Shown one piece after another: positions 7,374 through 55,335 of a stretch of 64,000 nucleotides of DNA. Position 1 is the stretch's first letter, and each line of letters starts with the position of its first letter. Made by a program: the position numbers and the translations under genes. The DNA is from a virus (Duplodnaviria; Heunggongvirae; Uroviricota; Caudoviricetes). The notes beneath the pieces are model-generated. The model was not told where the DNA came from. It made no database searches and saw only the letters and a list, made by a program, of their open reading frames with translations. The stretch is taken from IMG/VR virus record IMGVR_UViG_3300032007_001569; one strand, 5' to 3'.

Positions 7374-7382
7374 TCCTCCATA

Positions 7383-7925
7383 TCAAATAAAGTAACCCTT
7401 GATGTATTCCGCCGTGTCAGCTACGTTCTTTTCGCGCCTGAATAGCGAATCCTCGATCCAAGGATGGACTTCATTTTCGCCAAAGCCAATCACGTAGATA
7501 TGTTTGCCGCCAAATGAGTTGACGGCATTCACGTAGCCAAGCTCCATGTGTGTTCCGATGCTACTCTCAATATTTGCCAGGTTGACAACCATCACATCGC
7601 ATTGCCTGAGCTGGTTCAACTCAAACTCCTTGACTTCCCGCTCTGACTTGTGGAGATTCTGCTCATAATTGTAGAACTCAGGCGGGTGAAAGAATTTGTA
7701 TATTGTATCGCCATTTGACAGATACCATTGCAGTCGCTTTCGCCATCCGTAGTATTCATCAAACGTTAGTCCCTTCATTGCGCCAGCCGTATAAATCTTG
7801 ATCTCACTCATCACCATACTCCGTTTGAACCTCTTTGACGGCTTCGGTAATATGATCGCGAAGGTCATCAATGGTCTTGGCAATCTTTTCGTTGTGTTCT
7901 TCAATCGCCTTATCCAAGGCTTCAA
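7383..7925 (-). CDS. Nucleoside 2-deoxyribosyltransferase-like protein
   Basis: KIYTAGAM and GTHMELGYV resemble the NDT family motifs KIYLAGP and GT-x-E-xG. The true start is probably an internal Met near 7817. Confidence 0.5.
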   Translation of the reverse strand: MKPWIRRLKNTTKRLPRPLMTFAIILPKPSKRFKRSMVMSEIKIYTAGAMKGLTFDEYYGWRKRLQWYLSNGDTIYKFFHPPEFYNYEQNLHKSEREVKEFELNQLRQCDVMVVNLANIESSIGTHMELGYVNAVNSFGGKHIYVIGFGENEVHPWIEDSLFRREKNVADTAEYIKGYFI

Positions 7926-8496
7926 CCTCTTGTTCTGGCGTCAGTTGGAAGCGTTCATTGACCAAACAAATATCTACTTCCTTTTCAACGCCGTCAAACT
8001 GTCCGACATCTGAAAGGCTGCGCCGGTAGGCTTCCTCAATGTCATCACCACGGTTCAGCATGGAAACCAAGCGCGACCGCCTATCAACATAGAGATATAC
8101 AATGATTGGGCTATTGTCACTGAACATGTTGTATGTTCTTAAAGCGCGGAATCCAGCGGGCGTCAGCACGACGATTGCCTTATCCAGCTCGCAATCTTCA
8201 CGCGCCGTACCATAGCGCCAGTTTCGATACATGTTCTCTTCAACAAAAAAATCTCTTTTTGAAAACTCGTCAAAGGCTGCTTCGGACAGGAAATGGTAGT
8301 CTACACCATCCTGCTCGCCTTCGCGCGGCGGGCGCGTCGTGTAGGTGACAATTCGCCTGTATTCCGGGTGTTTTTTGACATACTCTTTGACAAGGGTTGT
8401 CTTGCCGCTTGCCGATTCGCCAACAACAACGATCATATTACATCGCCTCCTAAATCTAATGCTTCTGCTTTTTCGAGTAGTGATAAGCTGTTCCAC
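7804..8496 (-). CDS. Guanylate kinase-like deoxynucleoside monophosphate kinase
   Basis: P-loop GESASGKTTL plus the guanylate-kinase signature TTRPPREGEQDGVDYHF. Confidence 0.7.
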   Translation of the reverse strand: MEQLITTRKSRSIRFRRRCNMIVVVGESASGKTTLVKEYVKKHPEYRRIVTYTTRPPREGEQDGVDYHFLSEAAFDEFSKRDFFVEENMYRNWRYGTAREDCELDKAIVVLTPAGFRALRTYNMFSDNSPIIVYLYVDRRSRLVSMLNRGDDIEEAYRRSLSDVGQFDGVEKEVDICLVNERFQLTPEQEVEALDKAIEEHNEKIAKTIDDLRDHITEAVKEVQTEYGDE

Positions 8497-36213: not shown

Positions 36214-36219
36214 AAAAAA

Positions 36220-36295
36220 TGGCGGCGGCGGGATTTGAACCCGCAGATAAGTAAGGTTTGAGCTTACCGCGTCTGCCGAATTGCGCCACGCCGCC
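36220..36295 (-). tRNA. tRNA with anticodon CAA (type I, Leu-like decoding)
   Basis: Manual fold: acceptor GGCGGCG/CGCCGCC, anticodon arm GGTAAG-CTCAAAC-CTTACT, T arm GCGGG-TTCAAAT-CCCGC. A short variable loop is unusual for a Leu identity. Confidence 0.6.
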
Positions 36296-36304
36296 AAATA
36301 ATAA

Positions 36305-36376
36305 AGCCAGCACAGGGACTTGAACCCTGAACCCCGCGCTTACAAGGCGCGTGCTCTGCCATTGAGCTATGCTGGC
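36305..36376 (-). tRNA. tRNA-Thr (anticodon TGT)
   Basis: Acceptor GCCAGCA/TGCTGGC, D arm GCTCAATGGCAGAGC, anticodon arm CGCGC-CTTGTAA-GCGCG, T arm CAGGG-TTCAAGT-CCCTG. Confidence 0.75.
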
Positions 36377-36740
36377 AAAATATCGGCTGATCTCTCCTAT
36401 CTCACGCTACCTGCGGCCTGAACACCATTGGTTGGTTCGCCGTTGCCTCTCCTGCGGCATTTCCTTTGCGCCGCTTGCCACGCCTCGCGCTGTTGAACCA
36501 GATTGACCAGCCGATAAATCGAGGTTGATTTTCAAACGATGCGCGCGTCATCCACGTCGCCAACCTCTTCCGCCTATTCACACTCGTCTGTGCAAGACCA
36601 ATCCTCCGCGAAACTCCGCGCGAAGAATGGCTCTATAATAATAAGTCTTGGCATTAATAGGCATTAAGCCGAGCGCGACTCTGATGACTGAGCCGCACTT
36701 CCCTATTGGAGTTTGGGCTTAAAATACGGACTAAGCCGCT

Positions 36741-36817
36741 GGTCGAGATGACATGATTTGCACATGCGGCCTCACGCTCCCAAAGCGTGCGCTCTGCTGA
36801 CTGAGCTACATCTCGCC
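36741..36817 (-). tRNA. tRNA-Pro-like (anticodon TGG), possibly degenerate
   Basis: Canonical D arm TAGCTCAGTCAGCAGAGC and anticodon arm CACGC-TTTGGGA-GCGTG. There is one acceptor mismatch and an atypical T loop, TGCAAAT. Confidence 0.45.
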
Positions 36818-37033
36818 GTTGATTTTGTTCCACCGCTGCGCCGCCAGGAGTGGCAAAGGCGCAATGTAAGTCATGGGCTTTACGGGGCATCTCTTCGATG
36901 AACGATTGCACCGCACAAAATAACCATCTATACCATAGTCCTGATAGTGGCTGATCTTCTTGGGAACCTTACCGCAGCCCTTGCATGGGCGAAGAACAAT
37001 GCCGATTGATGCCGGTTTGACAGCCACAATCAT
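36806..37033 (-). CDS. hypothetical small zinc-finger protein
   Basis: 75 aa with CKGCGK...VRC. Its 3' end overlaps the tRNA by about 12 nt. Confidence 0.3.
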   Translation of the reverse strand: MIVAVKPASIGIVLRPCKGCGKVPKKISHYQDYGIDGYFVRCNRSSKRCPVKPMTYIAPLPLLAAQRWNKINGEM

Positions 37034-37476
37034 TCCTCCTTCGGAGTGAATATGTCCGAATCCAGTTTTGGTTCTGGTACTGATTCAATTCCCTTGACCA
37101 TCTTGTAATACTTCAAATACTCTCGATCCACGAGCTGCATGTCGTTTATCATATCCTCGACAACGGCGCGGTTCCGCAAATTATCTCCAAAGGTTTGTTG
37201 GATTGCGTTCAGCTTCGCGCTGTATTCATTGGCGGTCAAGCCTTTCGCAAAATACTTATCCAGCACCACGTCTTTGCGGTGTTTACAGAAAATGCAGACA
37301 TACGGTTCGATGATGCTGATGCTACACTTGTATCTGTCGCCGTAGTATTGCATATCCCGTTCTGTTGACACTTCAAGATACCAGGGGAAATCAATATACT
37401 TGTGCTCGCATTCTTTCGGAGGCGCGATTTTGACAGGCGCGGCTTCTTTTCTTTTCCTTCTCCCGAACCCAAACAT
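37030..37476 (-). CDS. hypothetical protein
   Basis: The start was moved to the internal Met MFGFGRRKRK. Confidence 0.35.
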   Translation of the reverse strand: MFGFGRRKRKEAAPVKIAPPKECEHKYIDFPWYLEVSTERDMQYYGDRYKCSISIIEPYVCIFCKHRKDVVLDKYFAKGLTANEYSAKLNAIQQTFGDNLRNRAVVEDMINDMQLVDREYLKYYKMVKGIESVPEPKLDSDIFTPKEE

Positions 37477-37644
37477 AATCAAACCTCCTAAAAAGTCGCT
37501 GCCGGTCGGAGTTGCACCGCCCTCCCCCACTGTTTAGCCAGGGTGTACCACTGTTATACGAGACAGCTAACCGGGCGACCAACCCGGAATTATGTTAGTT
37601 TCTGCGCGCCGACTTACGACTCACTGGTTGCTGGCGCGGGTCTG

Positions 37645-37732
37645 GTGGTAGCGGCAGCGGGAGTTGAACCCGCACGGGTGAAGCCCAGTAGATTTTAAGT
37701 CTACTGCGTACTGCCAATTTCGCCATGCCGCC
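37645..37732 (-). tRNA. tRNA-Leu (anticodon TAA), class II, encoded CCA
   Basis: Anticodon arm GTAGA-CTTAAAA-TCTAC, long variable arm, T arm GCGGG-TTCAACT-CCCGC, and a 3' ACCA. Confidence 0.7.
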
Positions 37733-37934
37733 ATAGTCTACGCCAATTTGATACTGTACAGGCCGGACTTTACGGATTCTGATTTCCTGCCTTCCAGATG
37801 TGCGCATCATCTGACGCCATCCGGCCTGTAAGCCGCGCTCTTTCTGGCGGGTTAAGCGCGGGAGCCAACATTAATATTGAATGAAACCGGAGAAAAATGC
37901 AGGAATCATGTCGTTTACCTCGCTTTGTTACTGA

Positions 37935-38094
37935 TCGGGAACCTGGGACTCGAACCCAGGCAAAAACACGGCTTATTGGTGACGCTGGCGGGTCTTGCAC
38001 CCGCATACCCAAACTTGTTGAATGGCGCGCCAACGCTTTACTTTTGAAGCTACAGCGTCAAGGCCGCTGCTCTAACCGACTGAGCTAGTTCCCG
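37935..38094 (-). tRNA. tRNA gene interrupted in the anticodon loop by an 83-nt insert; predicted mature anticodon TAT (Ile-like) if the insert is removed between positions 34 and 35
   Basis: A perfect 7-bp acceptor pair CGGGAAC/GTTCCCG, a canonical D arm TAGCTCAGTCGGTTAGAGC and a T arm CTGGG-TTCGAGT-CCCAG lie 160 nt apart. The anticodon stem GCGGC...GCCGT flanks the insert at 37977-38059. Confidence 0.5.
37977..38059 (-). ncRNA. 83-nt tRNA-like insert nested inside the interrupted tRNA
   Basis: It has its own 7-bp terminal helix GACGCTG/CAGCGTC followed by ACCA, a D arm GCTT-CAAAAGTA-AAGC and a T arm GCGGG-TGCAAGA-CCCGC. The anticodon region is degenerate. Confidence 0.35.
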
Positions 38095-38100
38095 AAATGG

Positions 38101-38172
38101 AGCACTGGACGGGAGTTGAACCCGCCACATCAGATCGGAGGTCTGATATGTTACCAAATACACCACCAGTGC
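38101..38172 (-). tRNA. tRNA, probable Gly (anticodon TCC)
   Basis: Acceptor GCACTGG/CCAGTGC, anticodon arm TCAGA-CCTCCGA-TCTGA, T arm GCGGG-TTCAACT-CCCGT. Position 33 is C, which is atypical. Confidence 0.55.
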
Positions 38173-38441
38173 GAATCCGGTCTCTAAACAGCAAAACTTG
38201 ACCGGCGCGCGAGAGCAGATGCCGCACTCTCAACACAGTTTTTCGAGGGGCGTCCAGTTGGCACTTTGGTAGGACGTGATTACGCCGGGGTTACACCGAC
38301 AACCTCTATTGCAGACCCCATGTGACACTCGCGACGTGATGATAACCTATCCGCGCCGCGAGCGCCTGTTTCACGAGCTGGCCTACCCGACCGCATTGGC
38401 ATTCCGGCCTTCTGACCGGCGCTGTTTGCGGTGAAGTATAG

Positions 38442-38513
38442 AGCAGACAACGGGGATTGAACCCGCATTTCCGGCTTGGGAAGCCGGGGTGCTACCGATT
38501 ACACCATACCTGC
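38442..38513 (-). tRNA. tRNA-Gly (anticodon CCC)
   Basis: Anticodon arm CCGGC-TTCCCAA-GCCGG, T arm GCGGG-TTCAATC-CCCGT, and an acceptor with two GU pairs. Confidence 0.6.
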
Positions 38514-38617
38514 ATCCGGGGCGGTTTGCGTTGCGTCATGCTGCGCGCCGCAATGCGCAACGCCGATTCTCTGCGGCATTTTGGGACGCACACCGCCAGC
38601 TTTCCCACAATACTATT

Positions 38618-38692
38618 TGGTGCCGCATATGGTGGAGCGTGCGGGTTCTGCCCCCGCAACCTTCGGCTTGCAAAGCCGACGCGCTACTGTTG
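38618..38692 (-). tRNA. tRNA-Ala-like (anticodon TGC) with non-canonical D and T loops; encoded CCA
   Basis: Anticodon arm TCGGC-TTTGCAA-GCCGA. The D loop AACAGTA lacks G18G19 and the T loop GGCAGAA lacks TTC. Confidence 0.45.
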
Positions 38693-38872
38693 CGCCAACG
38701 CCCCATTTACGTGTTCCAGATGCGGTGTGATATGTGTCTTTGGCTTATGGCCGTTCAGACCAAGGCGTCTGTTGTACACCATCCGCTTACCATATCTCCT
38801 TGCATCTGGCATTGTCATTCTCTCTGAGGCATTACGTATGCTCTCAGATCATCCAGGCCGCTACCCGACTTC

Positions 38873-38946
38873 TGGCACTTTGGATAAGAATTGAACTCAT
38901 ACCTATGACCACAAGGTCATCGTGCTATCCTTTACACCACCAAAGT
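38873..38946 (-). tRNA. tRNA-like gene with a 6-nt anticodon loop (CTTGTG; Thr-TGT-like) and encoded CCA
   Basis: Acceptor ACTTTGG/CCAAAGT + G + CCA, and T arm ATGAG-TTCAATT-CTTAT. The anticodon stem ATGAC/GTCAT encloses only 6 nt. Confidence 0.4.
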
Positions 38947-38988
38947 ATAGTCCGCATAGCTCATCGCTGTAAGCCTTAATGCGGATGA

Positions 38989-39076
38989 TGCGGGCGACTG
39001 GATTTGAACCAGCAAAGGCCAATTAAGACCAGTCGGCTTCTAAGGCCGATGCGTGTGCCAATTTCGCCACGCCCGC
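38989..39076 (-). tRNA. tRNA-Leu (anticodon TAG), class II
   Basis: Acceptor GCGGGCG/CGCCCGC, anticodon arm TCGGC-CTTAGAA-GCCGA, a variable arm with a 4-bp stem, and T arm GCTGG-TTCAAAT-CCAGT. Confidence 0.7.
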
Positions 39077-39120
39077 AAGATCGGCGGAAATCGAACGCTC
39101 TACCCAAAGAAATGCTAGAT

Positions 39121-39144
39121 AGAAGGATGAACGTTCCAGCCGCC
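39121..39144 (+). repeat. Copy A1 of the conserved motif AGAAGGATGA-N-agccg
   Basis: agaaggatgaacgttccagccgcc; see the finding on the 5-copy motif. Confidence 0.6.
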
Positions 39145-39260
39145 TTTGAAGGAAATCGGAAATTTGAAGCTCTTTCTTTCACTTTGCTCTACCAACTGAG
39201 CTACATCGCCGGTAACGGCGATGGCTGGAGTCGAACCAGCGACACAAGCCTTGGCATAGA

Positions 39261-39282
39261 AGAAGGATGAGCTTCACAGCCG
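39261..39282 (+). repeat. Copy A2 of the conserved motif
   Basis: agaaggatgagcttcacagccg. Confidence 0.6.
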
Positions 39283-39302
39283 ATCACCTTTCAACTGTAC
39301 TT

Positions 39303-39331
39303 ATTATAACACCGTTAATCTATTTTGTCAA
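39303..39331 (-). promoter_or_regulatory. sigma70-type promoter P4, positioned to drive the tRNA array
   Basis: Minus strand TTGACAAAATAGATTAACGGTGTTATAAT with upstream AAATATTTCAAGAAAAATTGTCAAAAGG. The next downstream features are tRNAs at 39288 to 36220. Confidence 0.6.
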
Positions 39332-39363
39332 TACCTTTTGACAATTTTTCTTGAAATATTTTT

Positions 39364-41604
39364 TTAGAGCAGTTCGCCCATGAAATAATCCACATCATAC
39401 GGCGTGATGACGGGAATCTGCGTCTCTTCCCCATCGAGACCAACGCGGTAAACGGGCGTATTGTCCGGGCTGAAGATAATGTCTGCATCCTGCTTGTCGG
39501 CCACATGGAGACCCCGCGCGGCCATATTGAGCGCAATCAGATCATACATGTTCGGCTTGGCAATGTCCGTAAAGGCTTCGCAGATTACCTTGACGCGGTT
39601 GTAGTTTGTCGCCGCATTGTTCGGCCTACATACCGTATATCTTGATTCATACAGATCAAGATTCATGTCCATCCAGATAAAGCGCTTTTCAACGCAGTCG
39701 AACAGAACGGGGACGCTTGTTGTGCTGTTTGTCTGCAGTTTGATCGCCATTTCGACCGTGGACGGCTCGAAGATTTCTCCGTCGTCCAGGCCGCTCCGCT
39801 CCATCCAGCCAAACCGACAATTCGGCAAATTGCAAAACGGAATGCGCGTGAAGGCATAGACCTGATACGCGATATATCGCCCGCCGTTTCTGGTAACACT
39901 GTCGATGTCAACATCCAGAAACTCCGCGACGCCATCGCCGTCAACGGAGCCTCCGTCTACAATGTCACCGGAATGGTAGCCCTTAAACTTATCATCGCGC
40001 ATGTTATAGTAGGCAACTTCACCCATTCGGTTGAAGTCTTTATCCAGGACTGTCGCGGAAAGGTCAATGTCAACACGGTTATATTCCGTATTCGTCCACC
40101 AGATGAAGCCGCGCACGACCTTGGCGTCGCTGCCAATCGGAACCTTACTGCCCCTAGTCAGCGTCTTGTTTCCGCTGGACGCGCTACGCTGGCTGAAAGG
40201 CACAATGTAGTCCTTCATGGCTTCGTCGATGTATACGCAGCCCATGTTGTCGCGCTTTGCGTAGTTGATCTTCAGCGCTCGCTCACAGATATTGACCACC
40301 GTGTGACAAATCCCGTCAGTCATTTCCGGCAATTCATTTGGAATAATAATTGCCTTGGCGACATTGCCCTTCGGGAAGAATACCCTTGTTTCGCGCTTCT
40401 TTCCGCGCTCAATGAAAGACTGACGAACCTGCAGGAGAACAGATGTTGAAACCTTGTCGGCAATCATGGCGAAATGATTGATAACCGTGTTGACTTCGGC
40501 ACGATCCTTTGCATCGCGGATGAGCTTGTCAAGCCGTCGCGCAAATTCGCCCGGCCTCTTCATCAATAGCTCAGATACTTCAACGACATTATGCTTCTCC
40601 AGTCCGGTTTCAACCTGACCACCGAAATAGAGCGGCTTCTTTTCCTCGCGCAACATGTGGAAACAGTCGCGCACATTCTGATATTGACCACCCATAAACT
40701 CCGCAGGATGGATGATCTCGCCAATGCGCAACCATTCGTCACGATAACGGAACAGGTCTTCGTCGATCCTGCCCAGCTTCGCTAGGAGCTTCATGATGAA
40801 CCGGCGCTCAGGGCGACGCATGTGCTTGAACCTCGTCTCACTGGCAAGGCTCAAATCGCCATCAGACATGGCGACAATCAGGCGAAGAACGTCTGTGGCC
40901 GTGTTCATATACTTGCTGACAGCCTCGAAATTCCCTTCTGGGTTATTCTTCATCAGGAGATTGGCAATATAGGCCGCATTCTCCTTCATGGGAATCACGT
41001 CGGGCAGACGCTCAATCAGCGCGGGATATGAGGCAAAGATCGTCTTGATGTCCTCCAAATCCTGCTTGGACAAGGATGTCTTTGAGGCACATAGATTGAC
41101 GAGAATTTCACCCAAATCATTCTCATTGCCGATGCTCAGGACTGTCTTTTTGCCCGCGTTCAGAAGAGGCATACGAGGCTCAGACTTATACTCCGGCATC
41201 CATTGTCCAGCCGTGAAGTAGTGGAGAATTGCGTTGACAAACAGCTCCGCGTCGGACGCCTCCGCCACCTGCTGTGGGAAATTCGGGTACATGGGCTTAT
41301 AGGTCACGTCAGCACCGCGCAACGCCTTGAGCATGGGAAGGAGTGCTTCATGAAGCCCGATGAGCGCCGGGCGGGTGTATGTCATGAGAACCTTCAGCAC
41401 GTCGAAATCAAAAGTATAGCCCAGCGCCTCAACGTTGTTTGTTACGGCGACGACATAGCGGGCAATCTCTGTCTGCGCGCCTTCAACCTGGTCGAAGTGC
41501 GTGTCCATCGGCTGGATGGTCAGCTTGTTCTTTCGGCGCAAGAGGATTTCGCTGATGTTGAACTCCATTGTATCAATCCTTTCAAAATAAAAGTAGGAAA
41601 TCAT
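39364..41604 (-). CDS. Large protein with a C-terminal TerD-like (Ca-binding tellurite-resistance/stress) domain
   Basis: SGDIVDGGSVDGDGVAEFLDVDIDSV...RYIAYQVYAF matches the TerD pattern GDxxxG..DGDG..E.L.VDL....I.F.V.IY. The N-terminal roughly 500 aa are unassigned. Confidence 0.45.
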   Translation of the reverse strand: MISYFYFERIDTMEFNISEILLRRKNKLTIQPMDTHFDQVEGAQTEIARYVVAVTNNVEALGYTFDFDVLKVLMTYTRPALIGLHEALLPMLKALRGADVTYKPMYPNFPQQVAEASDAELFVNAILHYFTAGQWMPEYKSEPRMPLLNAGKKTVLSIGNENDLGEILVNLCASKTSLSKQDLEDIKTIFASYPALIERLPDVIPMKENAAYIANLLMKNNPEGNFEAVSKYMNTATDVLRLIVAMSDGDLSLASETRFKHMRRPERRFIMKLLAKLGRIDEDLFRYRDEWLRIGEIIHPAEFMGGQYQNVRDCFHMLREEKKPLYFGGQVETGLEKHNVVEVSELLMKRPGEFARRLDKLIRDAKDRAEVNTVINHFAMIADKVSTSVLLQVRQSFIERGKKRETRVFFPKGNVAKAIIIPNELPEMTDGICHTVVNICERALKINYAKRDNMGCVYIDEAMKDYIVPFSQRSASSGNKTLTRGSKVPIGSDAKVVRGFIWWTNTEYNRVDIDLSATVLDKDFNRMGEVAYYNMRDDKFKGYHSGDIVDGGSVDGDGVAEFLDVDIDSVTRNGGRYIAYQVYAFTRIPFCNLPNCRFGWMERSGLDDGEIFEPSTVEMAIKLQTNSTTSVPVLFDCVEKRFIWMDMNLDLYESRYTVCRPNNAATNYNRVKVICEAFTDIAKPNMYDLIALNMAARGLHVADKQDADIIFSPDNTPVYRVGLDGEETQIPVITPYDVDYFMGELL

Positions 41605-41720
41605 GGCGGCTGAATTGTGGTCATGGGCGACAACCCATGTAATTTCAAAGAAGGAAGCCGCCGTATAGCCTAAACCATATCCACCGGAAATTGAGGCATC
41701 AAGTTACATCCAAAAATAAC

Positions 41721-41743
41721 AGAAGGATGACGCCTCATAGCCG
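41721..41743 (+). repeat. Copy A3 of the conserved motif
   Basis: agaaggatgacgcctcatagccg. Confidence 0.6.
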
Positions 41744-41761
41744 GATGGGCGATTGATTATC

Positions 41762-42304
41762 TTACGGCCATTCGCCCAGCGGACACGCGGCCTTCTGCGT
41801 GCCGTACAGCGCTCCCGTCTCCTCGGGGAGATCGGTGCAGAAGAACACGCCTTCCATCACGCCGAACAGATTGTGGGCGATATTTTCGTAGAGCGTGCTG
41901 CACTGTCCGTAGATGTCGCCAAGGTCATCATTAAAATACTGAACGACCTTATTCTTGAACACGACATAGGTCAGATCATTTGTGAAAATGCCCCTGATGC
42001 GCTTCACAAACGAGAACGCATCGTTCCCCTTGAACGCGGTCTGGAACACGTCAGCCATAGCGGTGGGCACACCGACAAAACCATTGGCCGGAACCACATT
42101 GACATACAGCGTGACGTTGCCAAATTCCTTCTGGTCTGGAAGGAGCTGGGACAGCGCCTCCGCCTTTGCACCGCTATCGACATACAGCGTCAGCCGATAA
42201 TTTTCATCGTCAAAGACGACATGCACTTCGGGATCGTGACGGAACATCTCTGCCGTTTCTTTTGCGAAAGTGACCCACGGTGGGGCGAGTTTAATCTTTG
42301 CCAT
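41762..42304 (-). CDS. hypothetical protein
   Basis: 180-aa ORF flanked by motif copies A3 and A4. Confidence 0.4.
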   Translation of the reverse strand: MAKIKLAPPWVTFAKETAEMFRHDPEVHVVFDDENYRLTLYVDSGAKAEALSQLLPDQKEFGNVTLYVNVVPANGFVGVPTAMADVFQTAFKGNDAFSFVKRIRGIFTNDLTYVVFKNKVVQYFNDDLGDIYGQCSTLYENIAHNLFGVMEGVFFCTDLPEETGALYGTQKAACPLGEWP

Positions 42305-42384
42305 TTATCTTTTCTCCTTTTCTGTTCGTGTCGTTTGGAAAATGCGGAAATCGGGCGATCAAACAATATCGTCTATTAAAAGGA

Positions 42385-42407
42385 AGAAGGATGACCGCCC
42401 ATAGCCG
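42385..42407 (+). repeat. Copy A4 of the conserved motif
   Basis: agaaggatgaccgcccatagccg. Confidence 0.6.
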
Positions 42408-42475
42408 CAAAGTGACTGTGCTCCCTTCGGAAATCAAAGCGCCAGAACATCAATAATTACCACTTATTTGTTAAT

Positions 42476-42497
42476 AGAAGGATGACGCTTTCAGCCG
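42476..42497 (+). repeat. Copy A5 of the conserved motif
   Basis: agaaggatgacgctttcagccg. It directly abuts the 3' end of tRNA-Lys. Confidence 0.6.
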
Positions 42498-42510
42498 AAG
42501 GCCGACGAGC

Positions 42511-42585
42511 TGGTGGCCTGACCGGGAGTCGAACCCGGCATATGCACATTAAAAGTGTGCTGCCATACCGCTTGGCTACCAGGCC
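42511..42585 (-). tRNA. tRNA-Lys (anticodon TTT), encoded CCA
   Basis: Acceptor GGCCTGG/TCAGGCC, D arm GCCA-AGCGGTA-TGGC, anticodon arm GCACA-CTTTTAA-TGTGC, T arm CCGGG-TTCGACT-CCCGG, and a 3' ACCA. Confidence 0.8.
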
Positions 42586-42666
42586 AGATAGTGTCGGTCT
42601 CTCCCGACTGCCAATCCTCTTTGTTCATTTGAAATGTTGCTTTTGAGGATTCAGCGCACCTTTCAT

Positions 42667-42754
42667 TTGGCGACGGCGGCTGGATTTGAACCAGCGGAGG
42701 CGCGAGCCTCGGCGGTTTTCAAGACCGCTGCAATAAGCCACTCTGCCACGCCGC
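42667..42754 (-). tRNA. tRNA-Ser (anticodon TGA), class II, encoded CCA
   Basis: Acceptor GGCGGCG/CGCCGTC, anticodon arm GCGGT-CTTGAAA-ACCGC, a 16-nt variable arm, T arm GCTGG-TTCAAAT-CCAGC, and a 3' GCCA. Confidence 0.75.
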
Positions 42755-42758
42755 CGCA

Positions 42759-43106
42759 TTATTCCCAGCCTAAAAACTCATACATCCTTTTGAGATCGTC
42801 TGGATCGTCAAGGCGGAATGAATAGCTTTCATTGCCACTATACAATGTTATCACATAGATGCTACCATCTCGTGTGTCAAACTTGAAACTGACATACTTA
42901 AACATACGCCGCCCTTCATGGTTCACATCGGCCATATTCGCCCAGCTATTCATGAACATGATGTTGTCATATATCTTGCTGACTTCCTGAATCGTCATCA
43001 GACAACCTCCATGGTTTATGATCGGGCGTGGATTTGCACCACGCATGTATGTTGCCATACCGTTTATTAGGCTACATGGAAGGACATTACATCTTCGTGC
43101 TCCCAC
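42759..43106 (-). CDS. hypothetical protein
   Basis: 115-aa ORF. Confidence 0.35.
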   Translation of the reverse strand: MGARRCNVLPCSLINGMATYMRGANPRPIINHGGCLMTIQEVSKIYDNIMFMNSWANMADVNHEGRRMFKYVSFKFDTRDGSIYVITLYSGNESYSFRLDDPDDLKRMYEFLGWE

Positions 43107-43182
43107 TTAACTGGTGGGCGCTACTGATTCTCGCTACACACAACCAACGCCTGTCTACCTTATTCCAGCACCGATCAGACTG

Positions 43183-43482
43183 TTACCACAATTCATTCTG
43201 CAGGTCATAGTGCTTCCGATAGGCATTGCCATCTGAAACATCTTCGCTGTGCCTGACACGGCGATTCGACTGCTGCTTCAAAAACCGCTTGCGCTCACTG
43301 CTGCTGTTCTCCTTGACGTGGTTTCCGGTGACAATCCACCTTCCATCCACATACTCTTCCTTCACCCAGCCGACAAACGGCAGATACCGACCGGCCACAA
43401 TTTCCAGCAGACGCCTCCGCGCCTTGCGCTGTACCTTACGGCGATAACCACGATCCCTGTTCCTGGCGATTCTCTCTTCCAT
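43183..43482 (-). CDS. hypothetical basic protein
   Basis: 99 aa, rich in Arg and Lys. Confidence 0.3.
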   Translation of the reverse strand: MEERIARNRDRGYRRKVQRKARRRLLEIVAGRYLPFVGWVKEEYVDGRWIVTGNHVKENSSSERKRFLKQQSNRRVRHSEDVSDGNAYRKHYDLQNELW

Positions 43483-43589
43483 TTATCATCCCTCCTGATA
43501 AATTGGCTGAGGCTGTGAGGGTCGAACTCACATTGCGGGAGTCAAAGTCCCGTGTCCTACCGTTTGAACGAAACCTCATTGTGCCGGAA

Positions 43590-46733: not shown

Positions 46734-47640
46734 ACTTTACTCCCATCCTTTCCAACACATTCTGCAGACCAAGCCCACCTTCACTCCACGGCTTCATGCA
46801 ATAGCGCCATAGCTGAGGATGCGTCTGCTTTAGCTTTTGAAATCTGTTTGGCTCCTGCTCGACGTGACAGCCGTACATGCAGAATACACAGCCTGTTCTG
46901 TCGCAGCCAGTCGTATGATATTTGCCGCTCTCATCCTTGACAATATCGCCATAGACCGGTGCATAAGCCAGACCGAAGCGATCTATATACTGAAGCACAT
47001 CCTGTTCCGTCCAGAAGGACATAGGCTTTGACATGGGGCGCTTGGCGTCGAAAGCGTTACAGCCCGTTTTTAACCATTCGGATTTTCTGAGCAGACTTTC
47101 AGACGCCATTGTCGCCACAATCGGATGAAGACCGCTTGCCTTTTCAAAGTGCTTTGCCGGATTCTTCTTCATCACCTGGCAACACTTATGACTGATGGGA
47201 ATGTTGCTGTCCCGCAGCCACTTCCACTTCGCCATTGAGAACCGGCCATTATACTTTTTGTTGTACTCGCTGTTCTCATCAAATCGAGCCGCCGTGTAAC
47301 CGTCTGGCTTCTGGCGATATTCATATATTTTCTGAGAAACTTCTTTGCTGACGAGCGGATAACCGTATGTTTCAATAACTTTCCTGAAATTCATTTCAGG
47401 CTTCAGCCATGTCACATTTGGAACTGTCTTGACGAACTGCCTGATCTCCGGGTATTCAAGCCCTGTGTCAACGAAAACGGCCAACATATCAGGGCAAACA
47501 CGGCGGGCGAGGTCAAGAAGCACCGTGCTGTCCTTTCCGCCGCTGAATGAAATGTAGGTTTTATTGTCAAATTGGAGGCAAAATTCGATGATTTTTGCCT
47601 GAGTTACCTGTATTTTTCGTTCCAGAGGCCACGCTTGCAT
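46726..47640 (-). CDS. PAPS reductase-like PP-loop ATPase (DndC/CysH family)
   Basis: PP-loop FSGGKDSTVLL, VFVDTG and a C-terminal Cys cluster CDRTGCVFCMYGC. The start is set to the Met at 47640, because the N-terminal extension in the ORF track is encoded by the IS terminus. Confidence 0.6.
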   Translation of the reverse strand: MQAWPLERKIQVTQAKIIEFCLQFDNKTYISFSGGKDSTVLLDLARRVCPDMLAVFVDTGLEYPEIRQFVKTVPNVTWLKPEMNFRKVIETYGYPLVSKEVSQKIYEYRQKPDGYTAARFDENSEYNKKYNGRFSMAKWKWLRDSNIPISHKCCQVMKKNPAKHFEKASGLHPIVATMASESLLRKSEWLKTGCNAFDAKRPMSKPMSFWTEQDVLQYIDRFGLAYAPVYGDIVKDESGKYHTTGCDRTGCVFCMYGCHVEQEPNRFQKLKQTHPQLWRYCMKPWSEGGLGLQNVLERMGVKYE

Positions 47641-47707
47641 TGTTTGCGGTAAAATGGAACTGTAGCAAAGGGGCACCAAAAAGTGAGCGGGCAATCGGGC
47701 AAAAAAA

Positions 47708-50006
<2,299 letters not shown>

Positions 50007-50008
50007 AA

Positions 50009-50135
50009 AGGGGCTCCAAAAAGTGAGCGTTGGGGCTCCAAAAGGGGCTTCAAAATGTGAGCGTTGGAGCTCCAAAATGTGAGCGAAAGGGCGCGACCCT
50101 GGGGCTCCAAAATGTGAGCAAAAGGGCTTCGCTGT
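50009..50135 (+). repeat. Array of 4-5 direct copies of the IS terminal motif (ggggctccaaaa[a/t]gtgagcg) inside the IS, just after istB
   Basis: The same about 20-nt motif forms the terminal inverted repeats and probably represents IstA binding sites. Confidence 0.6.
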
Positions 50136-50154
50136 TTTTCCCCTGCCGACGGCC

Positions 50155-50300
50155 TGAAAATTTAATCCACGGTTCCCTTGACATGGGGCCCTCCGTGGGG
50201 CGGTTTTCAGGTCAATGGGCCAACCCCGCGCTTCGCTGGATTGACCTGGCAAACAGCCTAACCGCCCCACGCCCATGTCAAGGGACTTTCGCGGATTAAG
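50155..50300 (+). repeat. Large nested palindrome inside the IS right end (about 38-bp imperfect arms plus inner 13-bp and 9-bp arms)
   Basis: ggcctgaaaatttaatccacggttcccttgacatggg pairs with cccatgtcaagggactttcgcggattaagttttcaggcc. The inner pair is ccgtggggcggtt / aaccgccccacgc. Confidence 0.55.
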
Positions 50301-50644
50301 TTTTCAGGCCTGAGCTCTGTATCCCCACGACTCTACTGCGGTGTTGGCAGGTGCTCACTTTTTGGGAGCCCTTTTGCTACACTTTTACGTTGACAAACAC
50401 ACGCTTGCATGACCTTTAGGTCTTCGTTTGTATATTTCACACCGACCACAAACCGTATGCCGGTCAGCGGTCAACTATTATCTCTTCCCATGCTACTTGC
50501 CCAACGGCTTTCACGCTACAACCAATAATTTTGCGCCATGCTTAACAAGCTCATGACAACCCGGCTTCACCGGGATAGGTGTTACTCCTTCCTGAAAATC
50601 ATCATATTGAAAAATACCTTCTTGTTGGTTTGTTCGTTCATGAG

Positions 50645-50830
50645 TTATGTCTTCGCGTGAACCTCAACACGAACCTTAGCCCACCCGAAATTCAGAAGAT
50701 GCTTTTCAAGCTCTTCCGCATCCTTGTAGGCCGCTTCCTCGCAGAAATAGTCGCCGCACTCCTTTGTCTCTGACGGCTCCGCGTCATACTTATTTTCCTT
50801 CCAGATCATGACCTTCAGATAGTACCTCAT
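50645..50830 (-). CDS. small protein translationally coupled to the DGR reverse transcriptase
   Basis: The RT stop TGA overlaps this ORF's ATG (ATGA) at 50827-50830. The product is 61 aa and acidic. Confidence 0.35.
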   Translation of the reverse strand: MRYYLKVMIWKENKYDAEPSETKECGDYFCEEAAYKDAEELEKHLLNFGWAKVRVEVHAKT

Positions 50831-51834
50831 TCAGTTTCCTCCGATATTTCAAAACGGTTCTTCTTGAGCAATTCATCCACCATGCTATCAAGGCTGGCAA
50901 TCAGGCGCTTACAGTTCCCGTGGCTCAGGTGGTTTTTCATTGAGCTATATATCACATCGAACTCATCCACGCTCATTTCGCCATTCTGAGCTTTTGCAAT
51001 CAGCTTGCGAATCTTTTTCTTCATGCCGCGCTTCTTTGCGCCATTGAGAAGGCGAATGACTTTGCCATCGTCCGTCACGTAGAAATGAAAGCCCAGGAAT
51101 TTGATTCCCTTCCGCAGCGGGACGATCTCTGTTTTCTCATTCAGCGTCAAATCCAGGCTTGCCAATAGCTTTTTAATGTCATCAAGCAGAGCTTTCAGCG
51201 CTTCGCGGCCTTCTGAAATGACATAGAAATCGTCCATGTATCTTCCGTACCTGCTGAACCCTCTTTCGGTTGTTATCATTTCGTCCAAGCGCATCAAATA
51301 CATCAGGGCGAAAACCTGGCTTGCCTGATTGCCCAACGGGAGGCCGATGCCCTCCGTGCTGTCAATTAAAAGATTACAAATCCACCTGATCCTCTCGTCG
51401 TCAAAGTGCTGCTCGACGACGCGCTTCATTTTCTCATGATTGATTGAATAGAAGAACTTCCTTATATCGCATTTCAGAATATAACCGTTTAGTCCGTGCT
51501 CCGCATAGAAACCGGACAGATGATCGGACAGCGTGTTCAGCCCGAAATCCGTTCCCTTGCCCACCTGCCCGGCAAAATTGGTCGAAATGAAGCTGTCTTT
51601 CAGCTTCGGCAAAAGGACATAATCACATAGGCAATGCTGAAGAACTTTGTCGCGGAACGAACCGACCATGATGACGCGACGCTTTGGCTCAGTCACAATC
51701 AGCTCATGGTATGGCGCTACTTTATATGTTCCATCCACGAGTTGCCGCTTCATTAATTGAATATTCTCCAAGGCATAGCGCTTAAATTCCTGCGCTTCCG
51801 CGCTGCGCCTTCTTCCGAGAAGCGACCGCTTCAT
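50827..51834 (-). CDS. Diversity-generating retroelement reverse transcriptase
   Basis: RT motifs are in order: CDIRKFF (motif A), the DGR-specific GIGLPLGNQASQ ([I/L]GxxxSQ replacing the group-II QGxxxSP), RYMDDFYV (YMDD) and KFLGFHF. The adjacent TR/VR pair supports the call. Confidence 0.85.
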   Translation of the reverse strand: MKRSLLGRRRSAEAQEFKRYALENIQLMKRQLVDGTYKVAPYHELIVTEPKRRVIMVGSFRDKVLQHCLCDYVLLPKLKDSFISTNFAGQVGKGTDFGLNTLSDHLSGFYAEHGLNGYILKCDIRKFFYSINHEKMKRVVEQHFDDERIRWICNLLIDSTEGIGLPLGNQASQVFALMYLMRLDEMITTERGFSRYGRYMDDFYVISEGREALKALLDDIKKLLASLDLTLNEKTEIVPLRKGIKFLGFHFYVTDDGKVIRLLNGAKKRGMKKKIRKLIAKAQNGEMSVDEFDVIYSSMKNHLSHGNCKRLIASLDSMVDELLKKNRFEISEETE

Positions 51835-51994
51835 AGACCGATAAAGGTTCCCGAAGTCGGTCAGCTTCTCAAAATCAGATAATGACTTTTGTATTTATCC
51901 CACCCTCTTTCGGCGAGAAAGGCTATACGCTCTTTTGATGTGGCGCTCTCCTTTGAGCTTCAACAGAAACCTAATCGCTCTCACAATCCACCAG

Positions 51995-52075
51995 AACGGG
52001 CGGACACCGTTGCAATAGTCAGAGTCGTTCCAATTCAGGACGCCATTGGAGTTGACGTTGCAGACGTTGCCAGCT
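51995..52075 (-). repeat. DGR template repeat (TR)
   Basis: 81 bp homologous to 52523-52603. It lies 160 nt upstream of the RT start on the RT strand. In the target frame it encodes AAC AAC AAC AAT AAT AAC GAC GAC TAT AAC codons. Confidence 0.85.
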
Positions 52076-52101
52076 ACAGCGTATAGCCCATAACGGTTTT
52101 G

Positions 52102-52467
52102 CTATAGTTTTGATCTTGCAGAAAGCGTCATATACTTTATGTCTGCAACGAGGGAAGACCAGGAATTGCACGTAACCTCGCTTATTAGCTTGGCATGAAG
52201 GCTGTATTCAGCCAGCTTCAAGAACTTGTTGCAGCATGATATGACACTCGTTTGCATATCGAATCGCGCGTCTTTCCGCTTCTGAGTGTCTGTTTTGATA
52301 CTGTTCGCGTCCTCTGAAAGACAATATATGTCGATAGCGCAGCCTTGTAACTTGTCGGAAAGCCTACGGAATCTGACAGGATAATGGCTTTTGCTCGTGG
52401 TGATGTCAAGCACACTTGTCATTAATTCACTGGCCTTTTCTCCGATGATAAATCTCTTCTCTGGCAT
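52102..52467 (-). CDS. Accessory variability determinant (Avd)-like small protein
   Basis: A 121-aa ORF located exactly between the target/VR and the TR, the canonical Avd position. No independent sequence confirmation is possible here. Confidence 0.5.
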   Translation of the reverse strand: MPEKRFIIGEKASELMTSVLDITTSKSHYPVRFRRLSDKLQGCAIDIYCLSEDANSIKTDTQKRKDARFDMQTSVISCCNKFLKLAEYSLHAKLISEVTCNSWSSLVADIKYMTLSARSKL

Positions 52468-52473
52468 TAAGAT

Positions 52474-53100
52474 TTAAGATTCGACAACCTCAAAATTCGA
52501 GATGGAAGAGTTCAAAATGCAAAACGGGCGGACACCGAGGCAACAGCCAGAGCCGCCCCAATCCAGGACGCCATCGGAGTCGACGCGGCAGACGAAGCCA
52601 GCATAATCTTTGTGATCGCTGACGGGCGTAGCCAGCCACCACCACTTGCCATAGGCAGGAAGATACTGACGATAGCGGCGGTAAAGCTCAGTTGTGAGCA
52701 AACTCACATGGTCGCGGCAGCACTTGCCGACGTTGGTTCCATCGTCTGCGGTCAGATTGACATTGTGCATGATGACATTCTGTCGGCCAACCGCGTCGGC
52801 CAAGCTGTCGAAGAAGGGGCCGTTCAGGTAATCGCGCACTTTGCTTGCCTTGTAGTTGTTATCTTTGCCGAACTCCATTTCCTTGACAAAATCCTTTGTA
52901 ATCAGCGCCGTCGTCTCCGCGCTGTGACCGAGTACGATATATTTGACATCGCCAATCTTGACCACTTTGCCACACTCGACATCGCCCAGCGGCACGCTGT
53001 TCTTGTTGATCTCATCAACATACAGCGTGATGGATTTGCCGTCGTCAGACTTTTCTACCTTCACATTGATACCAGTATTGTTGACAACATTGATCTTCAT
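52474..53100 (-). CDS. DGR target protein (208 aa) with a C-terminal C-type-lectin-like variable region
   Basis: The VR maps to residues about 166-193. The C-terminus GKWWWLATP...YAGFVCRVDSDGVLDWGGSGCCLGVRPFC fits the CLec-fold target pattern (W-rich, G[FV]RP). Confidence 0.75.
   Translation of the reverse strand: MKINVVNNTGINVKVEKSDDGKSITLYVDEINKNSVPLGDVECGKVVKIGDVKYIVLGHSAETTALITKDFVKEMEFGKDNNYKASKVRDYLNGPFFDSLADAVGRQNVIMHNVNLTADDGTNVGKCCRDHVSLLTTELYRRYRQYLPAYGKWWWLATPVSDHKDYAGFVCRVDSDGVLDWGGSGCCLGVRPFCILNSSISNFEVVES
52523..52603 (-). repeat. DGR variable repeat (VR) within the 3' end of the target gene
   Basis: It differs from the TR at 15 positions, all of them TR adenines on the coding strand (11 A to G, 2 to C, 2 to T). 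It ends with an invariant GC-rich 15-mer cggtgtccgcccgtt (IMH-like) shared with the TR. Confidence 0.85.
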
Positions 53101-53122
53101 ATCGTTATCCCTCTCTTTTCTA

Positions 53123-54184
53123 TTATCGTTTGGAAATCAGCGCATTTCCGCATGTGATCCTGTCGCTATCCTCTTCCAGGCTTGGCACAAAAACGATGAC
53201 ATCCCATCCCAAGTCAAGGAGTGGCTGCTCGAATTGCCGATATACGTCATAGTCTGTGTAGCTGGAACCAACATCAAAGCCATTGGCAACGGCGGAATTG
53301 GTCTGGTGAATGGGCGTAATCTTGACGATAAACTTTTCCCTGTCAAACATGCTGTCCAGCTTTGCAGCGTCCAGAATTGTATCTTTGGTAATGGCGAAAT
53401 TCAGCGTATATTTTCTGCCCTTTGGCATGGGAAGGTCATCAGCCAATTTTGCAATCTCGCGCAGACTTAAACTGTGCCATGCGAACTGTTCGTCGCGCTG
53501 AATATCATCCGTCGAGTTAATGCTGAACTGCAATCCGGCCTCGCCGTTGTATACATCATTCTTGACCGTACACCACAGATGGATAAAATCTGACAGGTAA
53601 TGGTTTGTTCGCGGCAACATCGTCGAGATGACCGGGTGGATTGTATCGGCACGAATGTAATCCCTGACCAGATGTCGCAATCGCTCGAACGCGAACGTAA
53701 TCACCATACCGTTATACGTCGGCTCTCCCATTCTTGCAAAGTGGACGTTAAAGCGCTCTGTGTGCTCAACATCCGGCTCGTTTTGCAATATGGTTTCAAT
53801 CTGGTATATCAGATCGTCCATTGATGCGTTGCCATAGAATCCATATTTCGGGCAGTCGCAAAAAGTACAGCGCTGGAAGCACCCTCGTTGTGTGCTAATC
53901 GTGGCAACCCATTTCTTACTCAGATCTACAGCCGTGTTTGCGACGCCGTGGATTTCCTTTGTGAGGCCGAGAAAATTGGCCTTGATGTTGTTCTCTTTGC
54001 CATAGTCTCCAACGGTGAGAAATTCCAGACGGCGCTCGCGGTCTACATAAATTTTGCCCGTGTGCGTGTTGACGACTTCAAGCATAGGCATCACCAATCC
54101 TTTCAAACAGTACCGAATTAAACGAGGCTTCCGGCACTTCCAAGAGCCAAATTTCCGTGCGGCTTCTGCCGACATGGATTTCAT
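53123..54184 (-). CDS. Radical SAM enzyme
   Basis: CFQRCTFCDC (CxxxCxxC) in a 353-aa protein, immediately upstream of the DGR target. Confidence 0.65.
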   Translation of the reverse strand: MKSMSAEAARKFGSWKCRKPRLIRYCLKGLVMPMLEVVNTHTGKIYVDRERRLEFLTVGDYGKENNIKANFLGLTKEIHGVANTAVDLSKKWVATISTQRGCFQRCTFCDCPKYGFYGNASMDDLIYQIETILQNEPDVEHTERFNVHFARMGEPTYNGMVITFAFERLRHLVRDYIRADTIHPVISTMLPRTNHYLSDFIHLWCTVKNDVYNGEAGLQFSINSTDDIQRDEQFAWHSLSLREIAKLADDLPMPKGRKYTLNFAITKDTILDAAKLDSMFDREKFIVKITPIHQTNSAVANGFDVGSSYTDYDVYRQFEQPLLDLGWDVIVFVPSLEEDSDRITCGNALISKR

Positions 54185-54401
54185 CGACGGTATAGGTCGC
54201 GCCGAAAGTCAGATAGTCCTTAGCCTTTTCTTTATCACATTCCATACCGTTATACGGATAGGAAAACCGCACCTTGTCGCCGTGCTTGCAGAAGATCGCC
54301 TCGCGCGGGTCGCCGGAACACTGGCCGCACCTCCAGCCATTCGCGGGCATGTAGTCCAGAAATACACCATCCAGCTTGCAATCGCACTTACTGCATCTCA
54401 T
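54078..54401 (-). CDS. hypothetical Cys-rich protein
   Basis: 107 aa with CSKCDC...CGQCSG...CKHG. Confidence 0.3.
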   Translation of the reverse strand: MRCSKCDCKLDGVFLDYMPANGWRCGQCSGDPREAIFCKHGDKVRFSYPYNGMECDKEKAKDYLTFGATYTVDEIHVGRSRTEIWLLEVPEASFNSVLFERIGDAYA

Positions 54402-54533
54402 TCAAATCCTCCCTTTCGTACTTCTCCGCCTGGCGCTCCATCGCATCATCCTCACGACTGGCGACAATCAGACTGGCATAAGCCGTAATCATAATGAGGA
54501 CGAGAAAAATTAAACCAAGAATTAGCCAGTCTT

Positions 54534-54995
54534 TCATCGAGCGCCTCCGCCATACAGCTTAATGACCCTGCCGCCATCGGCCTTATAGCGGTGTACGTCC
54601 AACAGTCTGCACATTGATCGCTTCTCCATGTCTTCATAGAACACATCGAAAATTCCGTCCACAAAATAGGCGGGCTGATTGTCGAAGCAGACCATCGCAA
54701 CGCCGTCTGAATCGGAATAGATGATGGTGGTGTGTTGCTTGGTCATCGCCTGGCCGTACATATAGCCGGACTCCGCGAAGCCTCCGCCCGTGTTCGGGAA
54801 CCATTGCGGGAACACATCGACGGACGTGTCGTCCAGATACGGCGCGCCTTCCTCATGGCACTCAATCCGGTGCTTATTGAACACGCGGACAAGCCATTCA
54901 AGATCGGGGTATTTTGCGTTTGGGTTGATTTCGTGCATGGTTTCCTCCTTACGCGGCTTTGTCGGCCTTGATTTGTTCCTCAATGATGTAATCAA
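54534..54995 (-). CDS. hypothetical protein
   Basis: 153-aa ORF. Confidence 0.35.
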   Translation of the reverse strand: MITSLRNKSRPTKPRKEETMHEINPNAKYPDLEWLVRVFNKHRIECHEEGAPYLDDTSVDVFPQWFPNTGGGFAESGYMYGQAMTKQHTTIIYSDSDGVAMVCFDNQPAYFVDGIFDVFYEDMEKRSMCRLLDVHRYKADGGRVIKLYGGGAR

Positions 54996-55335
54996 TGTCG
55001 CGGATAGCGATATTCCGCGCGGCGTTGAAGTCGGCGTTTTTCTTATAGCCGCAGCGCTGACACTGGAACACAGCCTGAATCTTGCGATTATTCTTATCTA
55101 TATGGTGCGAACTTGGCCGCGTTTTCATGGGCGCTTGACGTTCGCACCGCGCGGATTCAATCTGAATTATCCGCGACTTCTTCCGGCTTCCCGCCGTATT
55201 TCTCCACGAACTTCTCCATTATCAGGCCAGTCGCCAATCGCTTGATGGCCTCCCGGTTTGCCCGGCATTGCTTCTTGCAATAGGGCTGGCGGCGGCACTC
55301 CGAACACTTACCCGTGTCCTGCCATGCTTCCCTGC

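Follow-up and report, generated by a model that had tools for sequence, protein, structure and literature searches.

Organization of the locus

The uncultivated virus record IMGVR_UViG_3300032007_001569 (Caudoviricetes), a 64,000-nucleotide stretch of DNA referred to below as the window, carries on its minus strand a group of genes and repeats that we interpret as a complete, canonical and recently active diversity-generating retroelement (DGR) of a tailed phage of ~143-147 kb, a reading to which we assign a probability of about 0.93. In order of transcription, the locus comprises a radical SAM open reading frame (ORF; 54184-53123), the target gene directly downstream of it (53100-52474, 208 aa), an Avd gene (52467-52102, 121 aa), a non-coding stretch of 267 nt, a reverse transcriptase (RT) gene (51834-50827, 335 aa) and a 61-aa ORF (50830-50645) that overlaps the RT stop codon (ATGA). 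The variable repeat (VR; 52520-52603) covers codons 166-193 of the 208-codon target gene; the non-coding template repeat (TR; 51992-52075) sits in the Avd-RT intergenic region and is separated from the RT gene by a spacer of 157 nt. An initial annotation of the window had proposed a complete set of target with VR, Avd, TR and RT; each component was tested independently here and all coordinates were confirmed. The element resides in a large gut or rumen phage.

Template and variable repeats

The sole long direct repeat found by a repeat search of positions 50000-54000 is an 83-nt pair (51992-52074 and 52520-52602) with an offset of 528 nt. Aligned on the minus strand over 81 nt (TR 51995-52075, VR 52523-52603), the two copies differ at 15 positions, every one of which is an adenine in the TR (A>G, nine; A>T, four; A>C, two, from TR to VR). 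The TR holds 18 adenines in total, and the hypergeometric probability that at least 15 of 15 mismatches fall on A is 1e-13. The outermost mismatch (52075) stands at the edge of homology; leaving it out, 14 of 14 mismatches are on A (P 4.5e-13). This realignment agrees with the initial annotation, which had described an 81-bp pair with 15 differences, all at template adenines of the minus strand. Also as described there, both copies close with an identical GC-rich 15-mer, CGGTGTCCGCCCGTT (TR 52009-51995, VR 52537-52523), resembling an initiation of mutagenic homing (IMH) site and conserved across ten related loci. In the three bases past the 81-nt register the copies show a single non-A difference (51994 C, 52522 T), beyond which the sequences are unrelated.

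Read in the frame of the target, the TR is AGNVCNVNSNGVLNWNDSDYCNGVRPF and contains seven AAC/AAT, two GAC and one TAT codon. The ten diversified codons of the target are 169, 172, 174, 176, 180, 182, 183, 185, 186 and 188, and randomization of their adenines gives 15^7 x 4^3, or ~1.1e10, proteins and zero stop codons. No second VR-like copy was found in the 64-kb window, either with the TR whose adenines were wild-carded and in which eight further mismatches were allowed, or by tblastn with three DUF6273 paralogues.

Reverse transcriptase and Avd

The RT matches Pfam RVT_1 (2e-17) and falls in phrog_1423 of the PHROGs (1e-91). Its best relative in the PDB is 8ub7_A, the RT of the BPP-1 DGR (E 6.6e-33, residues 4-281), an entry described as a Bordetella phage DGR ribonucleoprotein (RNP); group II intron RTs follow at 1.1e-13 and, with retron-type RTs, lie some 20 orders of magnitude behind. 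In the alignment, LPLGNQASQ of the window RT stands opposite IPIGSLTSQ of the Bordetella enzyme (bRT) and YMDD opposite YMDD, and an arginine is aligned with bRT R74, one of two residues, the other being I181, that have been found to promote adenine mutagenesis (PMC7826257). DGR RTs bear the signature [I/V/L]GxxxSQ, whereas group II introns carry QGxxxSP (PMC7826257). Judged by its sequence, the enzyme is nearest to the DGR RT of the Bordetella phage and not to those of the group II, retron, Abi or DRT classes, in keeping with the initial annotation, which had called it a DGR RT from its LGNQASQ and YMDD motifs.

The Avd-sized ORF between VR and TR (52102-52467), put forward as Avd in the same annotation, was recognized as such by a PHROG match and by a fold search that identified a four-helix bundle.

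A covarying RNA architecture around the template repeat

In the predicted fold of the avd-TR-spacer transcript, GGCUAUACGCU, which lies immediately 5' of the TR, and the spacer segment AGCGUAUAGCC pair perfectly over 11 bp. The region was then compared across ten loci whose targets are 41-60% identical to that of the window, using RNAalifold and an explicit count of pairs. The TR-bracketing duplex, formed by 52089-52078, within the 26 nt that separate the TR from the Avd stop codon, and 51931-51920, at about spacer nucleotides 61-72, is paired in 100% of cells and includes three compensatory pairs. A 5-bp hairpin ~20 nt 3' of the TR (51971-51956) shows compensatory changes in five of its five pairs. 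Directly after the duplex, a stem-loop (51918-51898) has two covarying pairs in its 6-bp stem and is followed by an A-rich sequence, GGGAUAAAUACAAAAG, that is invariant in the ten loci, the two together occupying 51886-51918. Over the 22 pairs of the three helices, 98.6% of cells are paired and ten pairs display double changes; the covariation score is 0.46, as compared to 0.26 in shuffled alignments (0 of 500 reach 0.46) and ~0.1 or less when the partners are slid.

In the BPP-1 RNP, an 11-bp duplex between avd and the spacer (Sp59-70), a short stem-loop and A-minor adenosines constitute the "cPRT Stop", and an Avd-binding stem-loop lies just 3' of the TR; conservation of this RNA layout was predicted for 207 of 278 DGRs (bioRxiv 10.1101/2023.10.23.563531). 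By analogy with that structure, the hairpin at 51956-51971 is a candidate Avd-binding stem-loop. The invariant ATCAAAAGAG ahead of the 3' strand of the duplex is likely to mark the priming neighbourhood. The TR-bracketing duplex, stem-loop and A-rich layout, with their compensatory changes, support the conservation of a cis-priming RNA architecture in distant DGRs.

The target protein and its relatives

At its N-terminus the target has a short beta region (about residues 1-35), after which comes a DUF6273 domain of C-type lectin (CLec) fold. It matches Pfam DUF6273 with 36.7 bits against a gathering threshold of 23.5, the best-scoring stretch being residues 150-197, and a sequence search of the PDB gave no match to it. 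A structure model of the protein adopts the CLec fold, in agreement with the initial annotation, which had placed the VR in the C-terminal CLec-like region of a 208-aa ORF; the structure search matched dozens of CLec domains, and the fold was likened to the surface ligand-binding CLec domains of Mtd, TvpA, Lcl and the fimbrial protein 4eps. The model has two beta strands, at residues 169-173 and 179-183.

When 1.84 billion cluster representatives were searched with a profile, 2023 relatives of the target were recovered at E<=1e-3 and 907 at E<=1e-10, the best-scoring of which are mostly 170-225 aa long. In IMG/VR, 224 stretches encode such relatives, 80 of which were used for all locus counts given below for the target. 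Most of these 80 loci carry a cassette of target(s), Avd, TR and RT with adenine-specific mismatches between TR and VR, often with two DUF6273 targets in tandem.

Evidence for recent activity

The exact target protein of the window is on record from a contig of 143,360 bp. Nineteen homologues of 89-99% identity, taken from the 90%-identity cluster and neighbouring clusters, are hypervariable at the ten TR-adenine codons and almost invariant elsewhere, with an enrichment at adenine codons that ranges from 3e-9 to 3e-3 (Fisher p) in single homologues. One of them, P0287, which comes from another sample, differs from the window target at residues 186 and 188 only, both of them adenine codons of the VR, which indicates very recent diversification. 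Contig L001, from the same species (146,835 bp, with 96-97% identity over this region), has the TR of the window unchanged and departs from the window VR at adenine positions; the TRs of two further same-species loci carry a 1-nt deletion (L002) and an A>C change (L003). Heterogeneity of the VR, which the initial annotation suggested looking for in metagenomes, is present in these 19 near-identical proteins from other metagenomes, as against a TR that is constant in L001, and is indirect evidence of ongoing mutagenic retrohoming.

Many of the close relatives have the target and no Avd or RT within 6 kb of it (L005, L008-L011, L013, L016-L019, L022 and L025), and two retain remnants consisting of a truncated Avd and RT (L015, 6630-7128; L020, 6653-7167). 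This pattern suggests that the cassette has decayed or been lost repeatedly and that the target has persisted. Several of the DGR-less relatives possess a tandem-repeat array of 200-380 nt (L009, 6929-7307; L011, 6922-7156; L013, 6933-7217; and similar ones in others), which starts ~330 nt 3' of the target, roughly where Avd and TR lie in DGR-bearing genomes, and whose offsets are multiples of 18 nt.

Proposed mechanism

Diversification would begin with transcription of the avd-TR-spacer region. The RNA would fold into the 11-bp duplex between the segment upstream of the TR and spacer nucleotides ~61-72, followed by the stem-loop and the A-rich run, with the second hairpin forming just after the TR. 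RT and Avd would bind this RNA and synthesize a cis-primed cDNA of the TR with misincorporation opposite adenines only. This cDNA would then take the place of the VR, located at the 3' end of the target gene, with the GC-rich 3' end common to both repeats acting as a guide. As a result, ten codons (seven AAY, two GAC and one TAT) would be randomized, in the modelled strands and the turn between them (residues 169-183) and in the segment that follows. The parts of this scheme that we infer are cis-priming, the precise points at which the cDNA starts and stops, and the mechanism of integration.

Relation to known systems

The Bordetella phage BPP-1 DGR (mtd-avd-TR-brt), the prototype of these elements, has the same gene order and strand as the window cassette, and its RT is the nearest solved relative of the window enzyme, with which it shares the [I/V/L]GxxxSQ, YMDD and R74 features. 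In both systems a CLec-fold domain carries the VR at its C-terminus, the codons of the TR are predominantly AAY, and an 11-bp duplex between the region upstream of the TR and spacer nucleotides ~60-70 precedes a stem-loop and adenosines. The two differ in the length of the TR (134 nt in BPP-1, 84 nt in the window), in the type of CLec domain (Mtd type versus DUF6273) and in the size of the target, Mtd having 381 aa whereas the 208-aa window target is devoid of beta-prism and beta-sandwich trimerization domains. BPP-1 further has a hairpin 3' of its VR that was not detected in the window. Unlike that of BPP-1, the window cassette is not found beside tail genes, and its phage is about three times larger and has relatives that infect Bacillota.

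DUF6273 is established as a DGR target; it adopts a C-lectin fold, and the VR is found at the C-terminal end of the domain (PMC10743442, PMC11792537, bioRxiv 10.1101/2024.10.15.618418). The phages nd4 and nd12 each combine a large "tentaclin" target with a small, single-domain one, tgt2 (234-294 aa), and the small DUF6273 targets were interpreted as Mtd-like receptor binders (PMC10743442); DUF6273 targets are also on record from the Faecalibacterium prophages Lelie, CP11, Roos and Pioen (PMC11792537). The tgt2 proteins and the targets of Lelie and CP11 have the same Pfam domain as the window target, carry the VR likewise on a beta-hairpin at the C-terminal DUF6273 end and, at 234-294 aa against 208 aa, are of similar size. 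By tblastn, the window target is 30-37% identical to products of the nd4 and nd12 genomes, the nd4 match corresponding, upon inspection of the gene, to the 234-aa tgt2, which adjoins a gene annotated as a DNA polymerase III subunit and not tail genes. These phages differ from that of the window in their size (33-46 kb) and in having a second, large "tentaclin" or Ig-domain target, where the window has one target in 64 kb; their targets have flanking helices in place of the short N-terminal beta region of the window protein.

An Avd-TR-RT cassette with DUF6273 targets, as in the window, also occupies a hotspot in Toutatisvirus (bioRxiv 10.1101/2024.10.15.618418). There, one target lies 17 kb from the TR and some genomes keep targets without a DGR, as do relatives of the window; Toutatisvirus is a different phage group, however, and a remote VR was not found in the window. 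Finally, the IgA protease of Thomasclavelia ramosa (PDB 9qa6; PMC12402451) has an N-terminal DUF6273 domain that resembles the window target in fold only. This domain belongs to a secreted, cell-wall-anchored bacterial peptidase, and no link to DGRs is noted in the text consulted (PMC12402451).

The initial annotation had presented the arrangement as unusual, which these precedents do not bear out: DUF6273 is a documented DGR target, the small target of nd4 likewise sits among replication genes, and nd4, nd12 and the Faecalibacterium prophages anticipate a small DUF6273 target outside the structural module. The window DGR has a target of an already described type, of a kind known from gut phages, and leaves the understanding of how DGRs work or what they target unchanged. 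What it adds is a well-documented and apparently active DGR in a clade of large (100-270 kb) uncultured phages, whose relatives, through gain, decay and loss of the cassette with a persisting target and through a remote second VR, should be useful for studies of DGR turnover.

Alternative explanations

Several observations weigh against the interpretation of the locus as a canonical and active DGR. A scan of the RT against the NCBIfam library returned no DGR RT family, its top match being a group II model that scored below cut-off, and Avd had no match in Pfam, in NCBIfam, by phmmer against the PDB or with a seven-sequence profile. The GC-rich 3' element is equal in TR and VR, such that no distinction between IMH and IMH* exists inside it and divergence starts only after it, and no hairpin or cruciform 3' of the VR, of the BPP-1 type, was better than shuffles (z-score +1.4). 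As for a template:primer duplex and a priming adenosine, alignment A4 offered no convincing case of covarying pairs joining the spacer to the sequence 3' of the TR. Activity in the window genome itself is deduced from comparisons between genomes, and membership of the target in the virion is argued by analogy. Were the RT instead a group II intron, retron, Abi or DRT enzyme and the repeat a chance similarity or a remnant of duplication, one would account for the NCBIfam ranking, in which group_II_RT_mat (TIGR04416; 1.2e-31) came ahead of Drt3a and a retron RT. These scores are, however, far below their cut-offs (110 bits versus 300 for group_II_RT_mat, 69/200 for Drt3a and 58/235 for retron St85, with Drt2 at 41/390 and AbiA at 19/250). 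The margin of the BPP-1 enzyme in the PDB search, the LGxxxSQ rather than QGxxxSP motif, the lack of any Rfam match to a group II intron or retron RNA in the window and the confinement of mismatches to adenines (P 1e-13) all oppose this explanation, to which we attach next to no credence; the PDB search, the Rfam result and the adenine-confined mismatches refute it. On both points that the initial annotation had named as decisive, the nearest class of the RT and the adenine specificity of the mismatches, the outcome is that expected of a DGR. Alternatively, the element may be a fossil that no longer retrohomes and whose TR/VR differences date from past activity. Decay has occurred in close relatives, as seen in the truncated remnants of L015 and L020 and in the many genomes that keep the target with no nearby Avd or RT; the TRs of L002 and L003 are altered, and an IS21 insertion sequence (IS) has inserted 240 nt downstream of the window cassette. 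This insertion lies outside the cassette, however, and the RT, Avd and target ORFs are intact with catalytic motifs in place, as are the RNA helices; L001 and the window share one TR with different VRs, and P0287 departs from the window target at two VR adenine codons only. We regard a fossil as very unlikely and retain the reading of a recently active element.

The role of the target is less firmly settled than the nature of the element. By analogy with Mtd and the published DUF6273 targets, we slightly favour a receptor- or ligand-binding module displayed on the virion. The initial annotation took the target to be non-structural, on the basis of gene neighbourhood; the equivalent small proteins of nd4 and nd12 have been read as Mtd-like receptor binders (PMC10743442). 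A genuine DGR acting on a non-virion protein, for instance an intracellular binder involved in host takeover or counter-defence, would fit a cassette surrounded by radical SAM, T4 Y07B-like, integrase, PAPS-reductase-like, N6/N4 methyltransferase, PcfJ and tRNA genes, and surrounded by metabolism or replication genes in locus L004 and in nd4 too. It would also fit a small protein (208 aa) with no recognizable domain for attachment to a tail fibre or baseplate and with no hydrophobic N-terminus, which is accordingly not exported. Opposing this is the absence of any positive sign of an intracellular role, a fold that is the ligand-binding CLec used on surfaces, and a weak PHROG match of the C-terminal region of the target to a Hoc-like head decoration protein; moreover, the structural module of the 143-147-kb genome lies outside the window, and gene position therefore says little about the role of the target. 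We consider a non-virion target unlikely on balance, and less probable still its specific form as a free cytoplasmic binder in an accessory-gene island, serving counter-defence or host takeover and possibly working with the neighbouring radical SAM enzyme. If true, the latter would extend the function of phage DGRs beyond tropism switching. A narrower proposal makes the radical SAM enzyme a functional partner of the target, for example by post-translational modification of the DUF6273 protein. Their genes are on the same strand, with 23 nt between the end of the radical SAM gene and the start of the target, and a DUF6273 paralogue lies near a radical SAM gene in 6 of 80 loci from ~3 lineages, one such paralogue being a remote VR. 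Within 4 kb, however, a DUF6273 gene is missing from the remaining 74 of the 80 radical SAM loci, and RT and Avd are missing from all 80, while no DUF6273 locus among 80, outside the species of the window, has a radical SAM gene within 6 kb; radical SAM gene and cassette are 25 kb apart in contig 3300011008_000049; and the enzyme resembles RlmN/Cfr-type RNA methylases weakly, in its core, with all matches far below cut-off. A partnership of this kind appears to us most improbable, and a virion-displayed module is still the role that we would give the target.

The radical SAM gene and the 61-aa ORF

The radical SAM protein belongs to phrog_24834 (6e-101) and has a CxxxCxxC motif at residues 102-109. 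Weak similarity of its core to RlmN, Cfr and RimO was found, other families being unmatched. At least 263 IMG/VR stretches, on contigs of 5-270 kb most of which exceed 50 kb, encode homologues ~70% identical to it; since these match from residue 35 onward, translation probably starts at M32 (54091). Neighbourhoods were counted in 80 of the at least 263 stretches. RT and Avd were absent within 4 kb of the gene in all 80, and the DUF6273 paralogues mentioned above lie within ~1.2 kb of it. Across relatives that have both, gene and cassette are 12-25 kb apart. The radical SAM gene is conserved in the phage clade. By these co-occurrence counts, the converse count for DUF6273 loci and the 25-kb separation, its adjacency to the target is a feature of the window lineage and it is not part of the DGR; the adjacency pointed out in the initial annotation does not reflect a link, and the gene was rejected as a DGR component.

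IMGVR_UViG_3300013936_000027 has a DUF6273 paralogue adjacent to its radical SAM gene, and this paralogue matches, with only four non-adenine mismatches over 84 nt, the TR of a DGR located 12 kb away. This match represents a remote second VR (L173, 6359-6442, and L021, 7020-7103), and the phage of the window might similarly have one outside the 64 kb.

The 61-aa ORF at the other end of the locus (50645-50830) had no family match in Pfam or NCBIfam and was found, at 98% identity, in the same-species loci L001-L003 only. It could be a lineage-specific accessory gene of the DGR or an unrelated small gene, and its membership in the cassette is uncertain.

Phage context and mobile elements

The window encodes a DnaE-type polymerase, NrdD, a DnaB-like helicase, an RNA ligase, DNA methyltransferases, an integrase and 13 tRNAs. 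Among phage records, DNA polymerase places Clostridioides phage pCD1602_4 and large Bacillus phages nearest, at only 43-49% identity, such that by this gene the closest cultured relatives infect Bacillota. Megablast of positions 50400-54400 against 50,697 phage records gave no match, and counts from a promoter and terminator scan of 50300-54600 were at chance level. The tRNA genes form a cluster on the minus strand (36219-43578) for which Rfam reports 13 and ARAGORN 11 members; that at 38873-38946 has an odd anticodon loop and was not assigned by ARAGORN.

The IS21-family element (47641-50402) comprises istA (47708-49279) and istB (49263-50006) on the plus strand, opposite to nearly all phage genes. 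It sits within the PAPS-reductase-like gene, ~40 nt in from the 5' end of that gene, is flanked by an 8-bp direct repeat, GCTTGCAT (47633-47640 and 50403-50410), and is absent from the same-species contig L001. The vicinity of its right end contains multiple repeats (50006-50130), whose inverted partners are at 50353-50375. Relatives of IstA (69-95% identity) are mostly from Clostridia, especially Oscillospiraceae, which hints at a host in this class. A second difference between the two genomes involves ~1.9 kb of L001 (6103-8000) that is absent from the window (54949-55128, junction 55102/55103). This DNA is mostly made up of a gene for a 462-aa TnpB (Cas12f1-like_TNB; 6767-8155), of which the window retains an ORF for a 59-aa C-terminal fragment, reflecting either a deletion in the window genome or an insertion in L001.

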